From: Eledone cirrhosa
Lineage: Eukaryota
Reading direction: 5' to 3'
Length of the DNA stretch: 64,000 nt
NCBI GenBank assembly: GCA_964016885.1
Contig: OZ024741.1
Location: forward strand, 108,252,001 to 108,316,000
Numbering within the stretch: the stretch's first letter is position 1; each line of letters starts with the position of its first letter. Positions 1,068 through 52,989 of the stretch are shown in pieces. Position numbers and translations under genes: made by a program. The notes below the pieces were generated by a model. The model was not told where the DNA came from. It ran no database searches and saw only the letters and a program-made list of their open reading frames with translations.

Positions 1068-1260
1068 GGAACAAGTAGGACCCCGATGGCTGAGCTCAAG
1101 CCGTTTCGACGGCTAATTCTGGAGTCCAGAATTAGCCGTCGAAACGGCTTGAGCTCAGCCGTCGGGGTCCTACTCGTTCCTATTACCCACTCTACTACCC
1201 TAAGTATTGAGTACTTTGGTGCGTTATGGTCCACCTGGTTCCTTACCACATTTCCTTCGT
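1068..1260 (+). mobile_element. PLE mini-element family A: 113-bp palindrome (1068-1180, centre 1124) plus 80-bp tail, inserted in (TA)n
   Basis: Near-perfect inverted repeat. Right arm carries a hammerhead 3' half GAAA-CGGCT-tgagctc-AGCCG-TC-ggggtcc (1141-1170). Tail hairpin at 1189-1212. Homologues at 2561, 4858, 31710, 50266. Confidence 0.8.
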
Positions 1261-1329
1261 TATATATATATATATATATATATATATATATATATATATA
1301 TATATATATATATATAATTCTTTCTGTAT

Positions 1330-1497
1330 TTGTCAAAAGGCAGGCAAGTTGAGGGTAAAAGGAAAGACGGTTAAAGCGACTCTATGAGGAAGAAAAATGA
1401 AGCTAACCTCGGTAGGATTTAAACTCAGAACGTAAAGAGGTATAACTATATGCAGCAATGCATGTTGTCCGATGTTCTACCAATCCACTGGCCATCT
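1330..1497 (-). mobile_element. SINE family 1, degraded
   Basis: AAGCTAACCTCGGTAGGATTTAAACTCAGAACGTAAAG matches the reverse complement of the family 1 head. Confidence 0.7.
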
Positions 1498-1519
1498 AAT
1501 GATGATAATAATAATATTT

Positions 1520-2480
1520 TCTATTGTTCACTAGGGCATAATCATAGAGAACTATACAAAACAGGAACAATAGGGCTTTATATAAAACGTGTAAAAATAG
1601 ACATCAGGTCGCAATTAACAATAAATTAATAATAACAAAATTCCCTAACAGGAGTACCAACAAGGGGTTACTTAGAAACCCCTCAGATCCTAAGCCACGC
1701 CAATCTTCACGAGCCCCTCTCCGTTCTAAACTCTTCAGCCTACAGGCACGTGGTAAGATTAGTCCCATGCACTCGCATCATTTTCGTTACATTTACACAT
1801 CTTTTAACATATGTACAGGGGATGCAGCACTTTCCTCTCCCCTCTCAGCTTCCTTTCCAAGTGAAACTTGAAAAATTTGATGAGGATTTGGGCGATGGTG
1901 AAAGTGTCTATCTTCAATGTTTTCTGTCACATCCACCATACAACATCTTTTGCTACAGTCACCAAACAGAGGAAAATTGTCATACCGTCTATAGGAAGAA
2001 GATTGGACGATGTACACGATTGAGCCGGCTAATAGTCGGATCCGTCCTACAGGCAATAATGGCTGTTCCACAAAACTCCACAAATCAGTGCGTGTAAAAC
2101 GGTTTCATCGCTCCTCGTTTATCTCGGGCAGGTCCATCTGACAGCACCTCCGTGCCTCTAGAGTTTGTCTCGATCCAACAGTGATACTCGGTAGCACTGC
2201 CAAGTCAGTGTTTCCTGGAAATTTTCCATAGTCATCGGGACACAATGATTAGTACAATTTTGTTGATAACCAGAATTTCTTCGAAAACGCCGTCGCTCGT
2301 GTCCACGACAAATCTAGATATCGCTAAAGTGTAATTTCCACTGACCTCATTTCCCGACTGGCAGGGAACTGTGAGCGCTTGACAACATTCCAGAAGCAAG
2401 GCGTTTAATCCACGACGGCAGCTCAGTCAAAGAGACGGGTGCGGGAAAGACATGTCTCACAAACGGCAACCACATTTTGC
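1520..2480 (-). mobile_element. Degenerate 3' fragment of a Tx1/L1-like LINE ORF2 (zf-RVT region) plus 3' UTR
   Basis: Minus-strand peptides with stops and frameshifts: RDKL*RHGGAVRWTCPR..SDETVLHA (zf-RVT-like), LWSFVEQ..GRIRL..SIV, FFKFHLERKLRGERKVL. Confidence 0.6.
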
Positions 2481-2560
2481 TGCTCGTATATATGATTGAA
2501 TATATTTCTGATCTTTTCTTTCTTATATGTCAAATATCTCACTGCTTTATATATATATAT

Positions 2561-2660
2561 AGGAAAAAAGTCTCTTTTCCTATTACCCACTCTACTACCT
2601 TAAGTATCGAGTACTCTGGTGCGTTATGGTCCACCTGGTTCCTTGCCACACTTTCTTTGT
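2561..2660 (+). mobile_element. Family A tail with a minimal fold-back
   Basis: TTCCTATTACCCACTCTACTACCTTAAGTATCGAGTACTCTGGTGCG matches the 1177-1260 tail. Preceded by a small hairpin AGGAAAA..TTTTCCT. Confidence 0.75.
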
Positions 2661-2679
2661 CTAGATAGATAGATAGATA

Positions 2680-49270: not shown

Positions 49271-49856
49271 TGGTATCTTTCAAACTGTATGCACCAGAGC
49301 TTGTTTGTTTCCAGTTTAATCTATCACCGGCCATCATCGGCCATCTTCTGGATTCTTAGTCCCTTGTTCCTACTATTTATTACTATTACACTCCTTCGAA
49401 ACCTCAACGATATATATTTAAGTATGGAACTAATTTTTCTAAAACGGCATTCGCTTTGTTTCGTTCCTGAAAAACTGCTTCTCATAATATATATATCCAC
49501 AATTAAACACCTCACATGAAATAATTGTTTCTACTTTAGGCACAAGGCCAGCAATTACCCAGTGCATTGCTGGTACTTTATTTTATCGACCCTGTAAGGA
49601 TGAAATAATATACGCTAATTTTACCCCACATTAAAACAAATGCGTATATATTAAACTCTTCGCGGTGTTTATCACTTTCTACGCTGTTAAAGTACACTTT
49701 TAGCATATCTTCCGGCGAAGTAATCCTGGTTACTTAAGGACTTCTGTTAATTCATTTGTAACTCTTTCTGTATATATATTGATGTTGTCTCCACTTCTAT
49801 TATTGATTTGTTAATTTATTGATCTGTATATATAACCTGATTTTCTATGTGAAGAA

Positions 49857-50021
49857 ACTCTGATGATACCGATTTTGAGCCTATTCCCGATGGTCAAACT
49901 ATAAAATCATTAGGGAATTTTAGATAAAGATTATTTTTTCTTAAGAAAATTCTAAAATTTCTGATTTTATAATCTCACATCCTCGGGATGAATCTCTCTA
50001 TCGGTTGAAACATTTGTTAGT
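49857..50021 (+). ncRNA. Type I hammerhead with a ~140-nt extended stem II
   Basis: ACT-CTGATGA-t-ACCGAT...TCCCGA...TATAAAATCA..AATTTTAGA / TCTAAAATT..TGATTTTATA...TCGGGA...ATCGGT-t-GAAA-CATTTG-TT-AGT. Confidence 0.7.
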
Positions 50022-50265
50022 ATGATGGCATATTGACACTTTACTGTTTCTTATTCTTTATATATATATATACACGCATATATATATATATATATATATA
50101 TATATATATATATATATATATATATATATATATATATATATATATATATATATATATATATATATATATATATATATATATATATATATATATATGTATA
50201 TATATATATATATATATGCGTGTGTATGTATATATATATATATGTGTGTGTGTGTGTATATATAT

Positions 50266-50463
50266 GAAAAGAGTCAGCACTCCGACGGCTGAACTCTGGC
50301 CTCTTCGACAGCTTAATCTGTCCGGATCTAGCTCTCGAAACGGCCGAGGCGCAGCACGGGTGTCCTGTCCTTACTCTTATCATATTACCCTCTCTACTAC
50401 CCTAGGTGTCGAATAATCTGGTGTGTTATAGTCCATCTAGTAGCTTACCACACCTTTTTTGTT
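50266..50463 (+). mobile_element. Diverged family A relative
   Basis: CCGACGGCTGAACTC..TCGAAACGGCC.. plus tail TATTACCCTCTCTACTACCCTAGGTGTCGAATA. Confidence 0.65.
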
Positions 50464-50761
50464 ATATATATATATATATATATATATATATATGTGTGTG
50501 TGTGTGTGTGCATATATATATACAAATGTTTGTGTGTGTGTAACTTGCAAGTATATGTGCGTGCATGTGTGTGCGTATTTGGTTACATCAATTTATTTCT
50601 ATCCAAAATTATGTACAGCTGTCCGCTAGTATTTTCCCTGTAGACATACATTGAATGAACTATGATAAGATGCTACAGAAAAGAAAAATGTAACTAATCA
50701 GTTCCATAAGTATTTCTGAATTCAGAGTTACACAAATAAACAGACATATATATATATATAT

Positions 50762-50937
50762 AGTTTTAATATAGATGAGATTCTACATGACTAGAACTGT
50801 TTCATTCATTAGAAATCATCTAATGAATGAAACAGTTCTAGTCCTGTAGAATCTCATCTGTATTTAAACTTTTATACTCTGCAATGTATTGAGTACCTTA
50901 CTTACTGTGGTTACCACCGATTCAACCCGGAATAACG
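50762..50937 (+). mobile_element. Family B copy: palindrome 50762-50870 folded in hammerhead stem II, plus tail
   Basis: GAATGAAACAGTTCTAGTCCTGTAGAATC. Tail ACTC-TGCA-a-TGTA-TT-GAGT at 50876-50894. Confidence 0.8.
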
Positions 50938-52989
50938 TATATATATATATATATATATAAATGTAAGTATGTATGTATACGTACATACATATATGTATAC
51001 AGACGTACAGTAGTATGTATATATATACATACATTTAAGTAAGTACCGTACTAAGAGTGAGAAATGAAATTTCGTTTCATTCTATTCCATTTATCTATAT
51101 ATATATATATATATATATATATATATATATATGTATATATATATATATATATATATATATATATATATATATATGTATATATATATATATATATATATAT
51201 ATATATATATATATATATATATATATATATATATATATATGTATATATATTTATATATATATGTATATATGTATATCTATATCTATATATATGTATATAT
51301 CTCTCTCTCTCTATATATATCTATATATCTATATATATATATATATATATTTATGTATGTATCTATATATATATATATATATGTATATATCTGTATATAT
51401 ATATATATATATATATATATATATATATATATATATATATATATAAATATATGTATATATATGTTTATATATGTATATATGTGTAGGGGTTTATATATAA
51501 ATTGTATGAGTCAAAACTAGTAGTCAAATATTGAAGCGGTTTTATGCGTCAGTTCATAATTTTGTCATAGTTTTCTATCGGACGTTTTTTGTACGACGCC
51601 ATTTCCTATTCTCTATCTATCTCCTTCTCTCGTTTTGTTACTATATATATATCTATGCCCTCCCTCCTGTCTCTCTCGCCCTCTCTCTCACCCTCTCTCT
51701 TTTTTCTGTTTCTCTCTACCCACACACAAAGATACATATTTAGATAGTTAGATAGATATACACATCTATATACATATTTATATATATATACTGTATACTC
51801 TATACTGTACACACACACACACACACACACACACACACACACACACACACACACACACACACACACACACACACACACACACACACACACACACACACAC
51901 ACACACACACACACATATATATATATATATATATATATATATATATATATATATACGATCATACATAAAAATATATGTGTATGTTTCAATCTATCTATGT
52001 AAAATCATAAATGAGTCACAGCATTTCTCACACTCAAATGTGACCAGAACATACATGTTATTTCCTGTCAAGACAATGGCGGTTGTGAGGGGTCGGTGAA
52101 TTAGTTATATCGTGTTTTGGGGGGTTTTTTGTCCGATTACCACTAATTCGTGTTCATAGCTATCAGATAAATATATCCATATGATGACCGTGCATGTAAG
52201 TACATATATATGGAAGGAAAATATTAGTTTAACGCTTGAAATAGCAGGAAGAGAGTCTTAAAATTTCCGACACTAGTTCTTCATCAGAAGAAAGAATGAG
52301 AAATTAAAGAAGAAATACAGATGGGCAGAGCGGAAAACTTAAAAACAAATTAGAGATAAATAACAGCTCCATTCATGCTGCAATTTCTTGAAAAAGTGTT
52401 GATGCTGGCATTTTGTGCATGATAGGCTTTTTTGGAAAAGGTGATAATGGAGCGCGTCTATCTGAAATGGAAAATAACCGTATTGTATAAAGAGCTGTAC
52501 CTGTGTGCGTGCGTATACGTGTGTGCGTATACGTGTGTGTTATTATAGGTCCGTGCGGAGTTAAGAGATTATGTGTTGGGATATGTAAGTAAAAGAGTAT
52601 GTGCGTGTGTGTGTTTGTAACTCTGAAGCCGTGAGCAAAAGTATGTGTATATAAGTCTGTGTGTGTGTGTGTGTATATATATATATACCATGATATTAAA
52701 TAAATGGAAACTATATTTATAAAACCATATTTATTTTATTATATATACGTATGAATTTATTTAGTTCTTGTAAAAATCGCCTAAATTCAACGTTTAGAAC
52801 TATATAGAGATTATAATTACACTTATAATATTTCTACTTATTTCCATATATTGTTTGCGTTAATTTCACTTCTTATAATTTCACTTATTAAATTTTCTTA
52901 AATTATATAGATATATATCGTAAATTTTTAAATTTTAACTTTAATTTTAATATATTTTAATTTTAATATATTTTCAGGTTTTTTAATTC

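Follow-up and report, generated by a model that had tools for sequence, protein, structure and literature searches.

Penelope-like retroelements (PLEs) of the Hydra clade carry an endonuclease (EN) of the GIY-YIG type at the C-terminus, a CxCX5C linker and a hammerhead near the 3' end, and they target (TA)n (PMC8557442). In an anole PLE, the Poseidon element PAc (Frangieh et al. 2024, PMC11167929), the tail lies between two internal RT start sites, and cutting and extension take place on both target strands; the template stays uncleaved, the reaction needs RNA 3' of the starts, and the protein is predicted to be a dimer. L1 twin or dual priming also creates an inversion from a pair of opposite-strand priming events; there, the internal site is variable, its use is occasional, and the fragments do not overlap (PMC2837659). 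Penelope palindromes of Adineta vaga consist of head-to-head inverted pLTRs with an optional tail and palindromic junctions, and were attributed to self-priming on antisense RNA (PMC3846280). The passages of PMC11167929 and PMC8557442 that deal with the question call the origin of PLE inverted arms and the one-sided tail unresolved.

We analyzed a 64,000-nt stretch of Eledone cirrhosa contig OZ024741.1 (hereafter the window). On their sequence features, its elements are identified as 5'-truncated PLE insertions in (TA)n, and families I and K are assigned a C-terminal GIY-YIG EN of the Hydra clade. They resemble the Hydra clade of Craig et al. 2021 (PMC8557442) in having an inverted truncated copy and a tail on one end, whereas the tails given there are 30-40 bp and those in the window are ~60-96 nt. 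The insertions are given below; families B, C, D, F and K received their letters by matching the distances in a preliminary description of this DNA.

1068..1260, forward strand: A1 (family A), inverted arm without tail at 1068-~1123; the tailed arm reaches mirror 1180 and is followed by tail 1181-1260 with hairpin 1189-1212.
2562..2661, forward: A3 (family A), inverted arm of 6-7 nt with the same end point as A1, hairpin from 2589.
4859..5066, reverse: A2 (family A), tail 4938-4859, hairpin from 4930, tail-less end 5066.
5704..7584, reverse: family I, EN coding sequence (7499-6864) within a long tail-less arm; the partner arm (7514-7584) is interrupted and could not be scored.
11450..11865, forward: family J, fixed end, hammerhead core 11621, 57-nt tail without an RCTC/GAGY hairpin (exception).
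12650..12880, forward: family N, old palindrome, hammerhead core 12720, degenerate hairpin ~12806; 3' boundary approximate.
13970..15855, reverse: I1 (family I), tailed arm on the reverse strand with tail 14061-13970, hairpin from 14054, hammerhead variant 14127-14103.
Ending at 15855, forward: second arm of I1, tail-less.
15014..15574, forward: C-terminal GIY-YIG EN of Hydra type, having the CxCX5C linker, CxxC and CxH; the ORF upstream of it is broken.
15975..16286, forward: I3 (family I), reversed tail-only arm cut at the mirror, then tail-less arm of ~215 nt.
16389..16721, forward: family F, palindrome, hammerhead core 16567-16604, mirror 16650, hairpin 16656-16676.
24617..27507, forward: family D, tail-less arm of 474 nt, mirror 27417; the hairpin begins at 27428 (10 nt), and the end of the tail is approximate.
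28510..29056, unstranded: tailed family I arm (reverse), then reversed J tail fragment and tail-less J arm (J2) ending at 29056.
29240..29726, reverse: family L, palindrome with diverged arms; its hairpin begins at 29331 (8 nt), and ~100 nt further there may be a second one in decay.
29911..30298, forward: G2 (family G), tail-less arm of ~297 nt abutting a tail-only arm, hairpin from 30217.
31712..31906, forward: family B (A-related), hairpin from 31836.
38295..38503, forward: lone tail-less family I copy within a Helitron-like element.
41001..41503, reverse: family E, palindrome centred on the hammerhead core, 33-nt tail without hairpin (exception).
41803..44095, reverse: family K, tail-less arm of 822 nt, longer tailed arm, EN fragment 43285-42989, hammerhead core 41988, hairpin from 41883.
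45870..45910, reverse: lone tail-less family H end.
46506..46877, forward: G1 (family G), tail-less arm of ~257 nt, tailed arm of ~15 nt, hairpin from 46791.
46936..47131, forward: family H, hammerhead core at 47000-47021 and mirror at 47064; the hairpin, 47072-47091, has a 1-nt bulge and lacks a TA patch.
50270..50460, forward: A4 (diverged family A), same end as the other A copies.
50762..50938, forward: family C, mirror 50870, hairpin 50876-50894.
52690..52748, reverse: lone tail-less family G end.
54843..54960, forward: family M, hammerhead core, hairpin from 54939; partner arm not found.

The EN of families I and K aligned with the C-terminus of RT-bearing relatives, as in EN+ PLEs. The family I translation showed the CxCX5C linker and CxxC and CxH around E/N and lacked the CCHH motif, which is how the Hydra clade is defined; the same pattern was present in 39/39 aligned full-length relatives when the linker was allowed 5-7 residues. 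The RT region is truncated away in the window and the N-terminal RWK/DKT region is absent from its copies; the aligned relatives carry [YF]RDD (39/39), RW[KR] (36/39) and DK[TS] (39/39). Hammerhead cores were found in families F, G, H, J, K, N, E and M, 36-59 nt ahead of the mirror, and a variant in I; the A, B and C arms are truncated inside the hammerhead, and no core was seen in the window copy of D. All 18 scorable two-armed insertions of the window (18/18) consist of an inverted 5'-truncated copy with exactly one tail, and insertions in the window and in reads lie in (TA)n, as in the Hydra clade. Partial tandem (pLTR) layouts are absent from the window and occur in relatives, e.g., in L048 with two ORFs. 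Copies of A, B, C, D, F, G, H and L, i.e., 8/10 hairpin families, had no coding match; these are assigned to Hydra only by motif, namely the shared hairpin, hammerhead and target.

Pfam and PDB searches with the window EN gave no match, and no relatives were found in the viral contigs searched. An Rfam scan of the window returned only microsatellite-driven miRNA matches below gathering scores, with no hammerhead among the 150 of 195 matches listed. We ruled out the Naiad clade (N-terminal EN, no canonical hammerhead), as the EN is C-terminal and hammerhead cores are present, and a MITE or fold-back DNA transposon, as a one-sided extension of 33-96 nt occurred in every scored case. Membership among L1 twin-priming products was likewise ruled out by the fixed site and overlapping arms, although the two work alike. 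A TIR element at 57434-59466 is not part of the PLE system, and palindromes at 7443, 54070 and 63737 were set aside as inner junctions or cut off.

The preliminary description had claimed that, within a family, the inverted arm of independent insertions always ends at one mirror point 4-10 nt upstream of a hairpin in the tail. This observation was partly confirmed and mostly holds. The family A end is identical at 1068 and 5066, and also in the previously uncited copies at 2562 and ~50270; family G ends agree at 29910 and 46505, and at 52689 with one mismatch; and the same end base recurs in H (46935, 45869), J (11449, 29057) and I (15858, 38505). Flanks and inner junctions differ between insertions sharing an end. 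Two family I copies said to share the end, at 5700 and 16288, instead extend at least 4 nt beyond it, to 3 nt from the hairpin. At 38505, 45869 and 52689, which had been listed as mirror points, no partner arm lies nearby, and the point is thus an element end rather than a mirror; the 38505 copy, inside the Helitron-like element, may be a passenger. The inner switch point does vary as described, but in A1, A2, A4, B, C, H, N and E it gathers at the hammerhead core. For A1 and A2, we examined whether the copies derive from one duplicated palindrome: the A2 arms differ from each other at 1/56 nt and from the A1 arms at 3-5/56, so A1 and A2 are separate events.

A hairpin starts 4-10 nt downstream in 10/13 window families (A, B, C, D, F, G, H, I, K, L), whereas a bulged hairpin at this distance is expected at ~0.2% of positions (37/1397 CTC sites qualify). 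In the remaining 3/13 families, the hairpin is degenerate (N) or absent (J and E, which nevertheless have fixed ends), and "always" was therefore too strong. The distances from end to hairpin were 5-8 nt in A, 5-10 in B, 5-6 in C, 10 in D, 4-6 in F, 8 in G, 7-8 in H, 4-7 in K, 8 in L and 7-10 in I. The exact base is uncertain by 0-5 nt because the end point abuts (TA)n, and ends often share 2-8 nt with the target; the earlier distances included this TA homology in some families and excluded it in others.

Relative loci were gathered with a six-protein alignment, as broad alignments were too variable for locus searches. Two hairpins (hp1 and hp2) preceded the ORF in 27/49 relative loci with enough upstream DNA, one in 12 and none in 10. 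In the 27 two-hairpin loci, hp1 and hp2 are 55-83 nt apart (two hairpins in control windows: 0/326), and hp2 lies 34-69 nt ahead of ATGG in 25/27. No hp2 was seen after any tail in this genome; it is known from relatives. Ends were mapped with (TA)n masked in 57 loci; 20 without a same-family 5' reference were dropped, and of the other 37 a further 16 were left out, namely 11 that stop at a contig end, 4 that continue into the following unit and 1 whose reference has no hairpin. Among the 21 mappable ends, 17 stop 0-11 nt before a hairpin (8 tail-less at hp1, 9 tailed at hp2), with a chance of ~2e-11, or ~2e-8 when families are collapsed. L027, L067, L070 and L062 missed, and another analysis puts L062 at 6 nt. 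Palindromes in contigs of other organisms had offsets of 5-9 nt (L058, L082, L084), and one L082 insertion looks tail-less on both ends. As tail-less ends stop before hp1 and tailed ends before hp2, tail length tracks hairpin spacing; window tails end 60-87 nt past hp1, slightly longer than the ~50-77 nt that the relatives predict. A twin-hairpin scan of prokaryote genomes gave at least 120 stretches, which look like chance matches and were left out of the counts.

The hairpin follows the pattern RCTC-stem-NN-GAGY-RCY, a bulged stem-loop that shows covariation and is shared by Hydra-like PLEs of other organisms. For hp1, the inner stem was paired in 42/44, 35/42, 33/37 and 21/29 cases, against shuffle means of 32.5, 20.7, 20.4 and 11.0, and covariation was 0.477 compared with 0.160 when shuffled and at most 0.167 when slid, in a comparison that ignores relatedness and treats related loci as if independent. 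Past its first pair, the inner stem of hp2 is weak (12/20, 9/13, 2/8). G-U pairs outnumbered A-C in the hp1 inner stem (9 vs 3), mildly favouring the RNA strand. Global folding of L048 was no better than its shuffles (z -0.15), and an Rfam search of the hairpin in five loci found no family. Among hammerhead-bearing relative loci with at least 100 nt downstream, 30/46 have the hairpin 40-71 nt past GAAA, compared with 12/843 ORF control windows; most of those without it run out in (TA)n ahead of the hairpin site.

A genome-wide sharp peak of arm ends, the check suggested in the preliminary description, was sought for family I only, in public reads, where the top ends listed showed a sharp end. 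The largest loose end listed lies at 14057 and opens into (TA)n; it is the mirror at ~14062 lengthened by ATAT homology. In a pair of RAD runs, which sample few loci and those unevenly, 2157 and 2282 reads support it (bin depth ~6400-6500), and contigs in X1 numbered 127 at 14057 vs 10 at 14062, with 1 contig in organism B. Of the opposite-strand joints listed, 10/13 fall at 14108-14131, i.e., the hammerhead core, and the tailed arm is cut inside the tail in 6/13 of the read joints listed.

We consider the chances slightly better than even that the insertions arise by programmed twin priming, in which priming would happen once on each target strand, at a TA patch, and each hairpin would position one of these two events. 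The template RNA would contain the 3' UTR and hammerhead of one unit and continue into the 5' leader of the next, which, as seen in relatives, would carry hp1 and hp2 ahead of the ORF start. The element protein may bind each hairpin, and reverse transcription would then begin 3-10 nt 5' of that hairpin, at a TA-rich patch able to pair with the nicked (TA)n target end. By analogy with the anole PLE in vitro, one target strand would prime before hp2 and copy hp1, giving the tailed arm; priming on the other, ahead of hp1, would make the tail-less arm and with it the fixed mirror point. Both cDNAs would stop variably, often at the hammerhead, and then join head to head. Hairpin spacing would thus equal tail length, the hairpin setting the zone and TA homology blurring the exact base, and the insertions would be dead-on-arrival copies of Hydra-clade PLEs. 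The original suggestion of a protein-bound hairpin acting as a ruler agrees with the sharp read end, the covariation and the 0-11 nt offset in relatives, while protein binding is something we infer; of its two variants, priming that starts at the fixed point fits, and a strand that stops there fits less well. The fixed ends of J and E without a hairpin count against the twin-hairpin model, as do the 10/49 loci without one under the pattern used. Further points against it are the lack of a visible hp2 after the tails of this genome, the slightly long window tails, the four mapped ends that missed, the weak inner stem of hp2, the L082 insertion that looks tail-less on both ends and the folding result for L048.

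Two cDNAs made independently do not predict near-symmetric palindromes, and many in the window have an unpaired middle of only 0-20 nt, which counts against twin priming. Such near-symmetry and the almost identical arms (A1, A2, C, F, L, E; D 473/474, K 820/822) could indicate that fold-back copying of the first cDNA yields the inverted arm, with a stall at a protein-bound hairpin, and self-priming was suggested for PLE palindromes (PMC3846280). However, in G1, G2, I1 and I3 the tail-less arm is the longer of the two, and there, as in the read joints, it has sequence missing from the tailed arm; together with joints cutting the tail, these cannot come from fold-back copying. Lone tail-less ends also share the same stop base, and the hp2 end is left unexplained. 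Fold-back is excluded as a general route and may be the source of the symmetric subset; as the explanation it is the least probable of those weighed here. Scarcely more credible is the older published view, in which the EN would recognise the hairpin in DNA (cDNA or cruciform) and trim one end on resolving an intermediate. PMC8557442 attributes the tail to EN-mediated resolution, and the D. virilis EN needed the tail for DNA recognition (cited in PMC11167929), but the G-U excess in hp1 mildly favours RNA, the tailed end stops ahead of hp2, which is never copied into that cDNA, and later in vitro work assigns the tail to RT starts.

We also regard it as improbable, if a little less so, that TA microhomology alone sets the ends and that the hairpins, linked to the patch, serve e.g. 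translation control or RNP packaging. TA runs of at least 4 precede hp1 in 18/22 relatives and hp2 in 8/22, compared with 7% of 162 controls, and occur in 6/12 window families vs 8/108 controls; the homology often shared with the target and the position of hp2 ~45 nt ahead of the start codon also suit this explanation. Yet family H has no TA patch and both its copies end 7 nt before the hairpin, the first base mismatches in C, D, G and L, 9 tailed ends stop before hp2 despite its weak patch, and the main ends listed include none at other TA runs, such as the one in the loop of the family I hairpin. Somewhat less improbable, but still unlikely, is that the hairpins mark RNA cut sites, with a nuclease of the element or host cutting 5' of each and the RT priming at the 3' ends, which would keep the hairpin as a ruler, though for RNA processing. 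The geometry is the same as for programmed twin priming, and for the anole PLE the ends of RNA-seq reads fall on the start sites (PMC11167929), although these reads may derive from inserted copies. The anole product was unchanged by 3' extensions and mapped to internal initiation in vitro (PMC11167929), and two free RNA pools would not give one tail per insertion.

The one-sided extension corresponds to the PLE tail of the literature, as the fixed mirror point does to the inner RT start published there (PMC11167929, PMC8557442). That known tail and start site, the second hairpin and the contribution of the TA patch had been missed in the preliminary description. As in PAc, two RT starts would bound the tail; in PAc, they lie within one AC-rich stem loop inside the ORF, without target homology (PMC11167929), whereas here the 5' leader would have them 5' of its two repeated hairpins, at TA homology, and they would be used asymmetrically. 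The anole protein, from a different clade, used both sites equally on both strands in vitro (PMC11167929), which counts against the asymmetric model here. The tail-only cases G2 and I3 look exactly like L1 twin priming (PMC2837659), but the site here is fixed and habitual and the arms usually overlap. The insertions also resemble the Adineta vaga palindromes; the text available for PMC3846280 has 0 occurrences of "hairpin" and describes no positional hairpin.

More tentatively, and with the odds somewhat against it, Hydra PLEs could use hard-wired twin priming by a putative protein dimer on the two hairpins, its subunits on opposite target strands. If so, both DNA junctions would come from reverse transcription without conventional second-strand priming, and a ~25-nt hairpin with a TA patch would be a portable "start here" signal, the pair spacing programming tail length. 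A hairpin before which ends stop could explain the lopsided PLE tail, and a repeated covarying RNA motif a few bases past each end makes that question simply testable. The hairpin rule could also guide the annotation of Hydra element boundaries and represents a compact cis signal for a telomerase-related RT inserting into (TA)n.

The fixed end and tail were already known; the hairpin 3' of each fixed end is apparently undescribed. No description of the hairpin pair was found in the literature searched, including the parts available of a retrozyme preprint (10.64898/2026.07.22.740005). "Hairpin" and "stem-loop" occur 0 times in the main text seen of PMC8557442, and "hairpin" 0 times in its supplement. 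The consensus sequences of that study nonetheless contain the motif, and its Hydra-1_Ajap consensus, read by eye, opens with both hairpins.

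The window is AT-rich (33% GC), rich in microsatellites and of animal type, and no long ORFs were found in its 64 kb. Local inverted repeats were listed by comparing the window with itself after masking microsatellites; the majority were head-to-head arms lying in (TA)n and extended on one side only. Coding sequence for the C-terminal GIY-YIG domain seen in RT-bearing proteins is present in families I and K, and 6038 relatives were recovered with E ≤ 0.001. In family I, the CxCX5C linker, CxxC and CxH are present and CCHH is absent, a combination that defines the Hydra clade in PMC8557442. 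In most families, hammerhead cores lie 36–59 nt before the mirror, i.e., the fixed end of the tail-less inverted arm. PMC8557442 describes the Penelope-like element (PLE) insertion as a truncated, inverted copy tailed at only one end, and PMC11167929 describes the tail of the anole PLE as the stretch bounded by two RT start sites; therefore, neither the element type nor the fixed end is new.

The preliminary description had stated that independent insertions of a family share the outer end of the inverted arm, 4–10 nt upstream of a tail hairpin marked by NCTC. The same end was indeed found in independent copies of families A (four copies), G, H and J, whereas in family I it is shared only to within about 4 nt, and three of the cited ends are not mirror points, as the partner arm is missing at all three. 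A hairpin lies beyond the mirror in 10 of the 13 window families; J and E have fixed ends without one, and that of N is degenerate. The real motif is narrower than NCTC: RCTC is followed by a 3–5 bp stem with its loop and stem partner, after which come a 2-nt bulge, GAGY and RCY. About 0.2% of positions would be expected to have an RCTC/GAGY bulged hairpin of this kind 4–10 nt downstream, compared with the 10/13 families observed. Each distance is a range and not a single point, as the fixed ends border (TA)n and the spacer, too, is TA-like. Duplication of one already-palindromic master, named at the outset as a competing origin of the copies, does not explain insertions A1 and A2, because their flanks and junctions differ and private variants are common to both A2 arms. 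Related sequences in the window were as follows.

9500–10253 (-), another decayed Hydra-type EN fragment, ending near 9520 in (AT)n with no hairpin visible
13847 (-) and 63645 (-), further bulged hairpins with tail-like sequence, their partner arms either not found or lost beyond the window end
38020–39077, a putative Helitron-like element (TC-type start, 3' hairpin plus CTAG) that carries a tail-less family I copy

Relatives comprised 89 Hydra-like loci from metagenome and MAG contigs. Those designated L078–L089 are Hydra-like PLE sequences in contigs filed as bacterial MAGs and are probably host DNA binned with symbionts. Among the 46 loci in which a hammerhead is followed by 100 nt or more, 30 showed a hairpin 40–71 nt past GAAA, compared with 12/843 control windows. 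The outer helix of the relatives is GCTC/GAGC, with one compensatory case of GCAC/GTGC, and that of most window families is ACTC/GAGT. Pairing of the inner stem, which was left out of the selection, far exceeded that of shuffles; in a 28-sequence alignment, both sides changed in 36 cells versus 9.4 in shuffled data, with relatedness uncontrolled. Upstream of the ORF, two hairpins (hp1 and hp2) were present in 27 of 49 loci, one in 12 and none in 10; hp1 and hp2 are spaced 55–83 nt apart, and hp2 lies mostly 34–69 nt before the start codon. In locus L048, the entire junction of two tandem ORFs consists of the hammerhead, hp1, hp2 and ATG. By eye, both hairpins stand at the start of the published Hydra-1_Ajap consensus, and a further two Hydra consensus sequences terminate in hp1 plus tail. 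Three 9-letter motif cores gave six matches in the PMC8557442 supplement, four in Hydra termini and two isolated outside the Hydra file.

The 3' end of each locus was then mapped against the 5' leader of its own family. Seventeen of the 21 mappable ends lay 0–11 nt before a hairpin (chance per end, about 0.14), comprising eight tail-less ends before hp1 and nine tailed ends before hp2, so the preliminary description had seen half of a pair. At the level of sequence, the outer end follows the rule that governs the mirror, and the tail spans the DNA from one site to the other; hp2 was observed in the relatives, and none of the tails in the window's genome was seen to be followed by it. Loci L005, L006, L009 and L018, outside the script's mapped set, also fit, and the misses were L027, L067, L070 and, via an indel, L062 (6 nt in another measurement). 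A TA run precedes hp1 in 18/22 loci and hp2 in 8/22; family H has no TA run, yet its end is still at 7 nt. Window tails extend 60–87 nt past hp1, somewhat longer than the relatives predict. The earlier ruler model, in which a protein on the hairpin sets the end, gains support in that the hairpin marks the end zone, but it foresaw no second hairpin, and the protein binding is what we infer.

Arm-end positions were taken from reads for one family (I), and the main loose end was at 14057, opening into (TA)n, in line with a fixed end. Two RAD runs supported it with 2157 and 2282 reads, the largest counts among the ends listed, with RAD reads sampling loci unevenly; in a third run it was found in at least 127 contigs versus 10 at 14062, among the ends listed, and one contig came from a second organism. 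At 14058, 810 and 814 reads join the mirror-cut family I tail to a 3' hairpin with CTAG like that of 38020–39077, which probably reflects amplification of a tail-only arm within a Helitron-like family. At 14008, 1030 and 1189 reads carry the family I hairpin with another distal tail, indicating a family I subfamily with a swapped tail end. The inner switch point, previously called variable, is variable yet concentrated at 14108–14131, because family I read depth drops across the hammerhead (about 6600 to 2600 to 900) and 10 of the 13 opposite-strand joints listed lie there.

Each of the 18/18 scorable two-armed window insertions has one tail; with ends at random, the chance is 0.5^18, or about 4e-6 (1.9e-6 counting J2). 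The sole one-tail exception seen was relative L082 (1899–2159 and 5471–5744), seemingly tail-less at both ends. Fold-back of the first cDNA is ruled out as a general route, because the tail-less arm is longer, or holds all body sequence, in insertions G1, G2, I1 and I3. We propose that a protein bound to each hairpin would start RT just 5' of it and that each hairpin would serve one target strand, a fixed form of twin priming, which uses opposite target strands (PMC2837659). This proposal agrees with the anole PLE, which, in PMC11167929, extends both strands, requires RNA 3' of the start sites and has a predicted dimer; however, the anole protein is described there as without strand bias, whereas our proposal has one. 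The arms hold the hammerhead core, so the templates were uncleaved, as in that source's anole in vitro system. The many near-symmetric palindromes may arise because both RTs stall on reaching the ribozyme, or a subset of them may come from fold-back. Judged from sequence, a hairpin pair setting both ends appears to be new for a known clade and directly testable; no description of it was found in searches that covered open-access literature, with term look-ups in the key PLE papers.

Other repeats in the window were as follows.

57434–59466 within 56903–59577, nested inverted repeats (381 and 144 nt) resembling a TIR DNA transposon
44454–44657, 45959–46080 and 47197–47402, short interspersed repeat copies, tRNA-SINE-like by eye
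~8000–8900 and ~56200–56800, decayed sequence, LINE reverse transcriptase-like by eye
24850–25230, 26944–27190 and 52950–54000, long (AAAAAT)n/(TTTTTA)n arrays in or next to element arms
Family D, an (AAAAAT)n/(TTTTTA)n array in both arms
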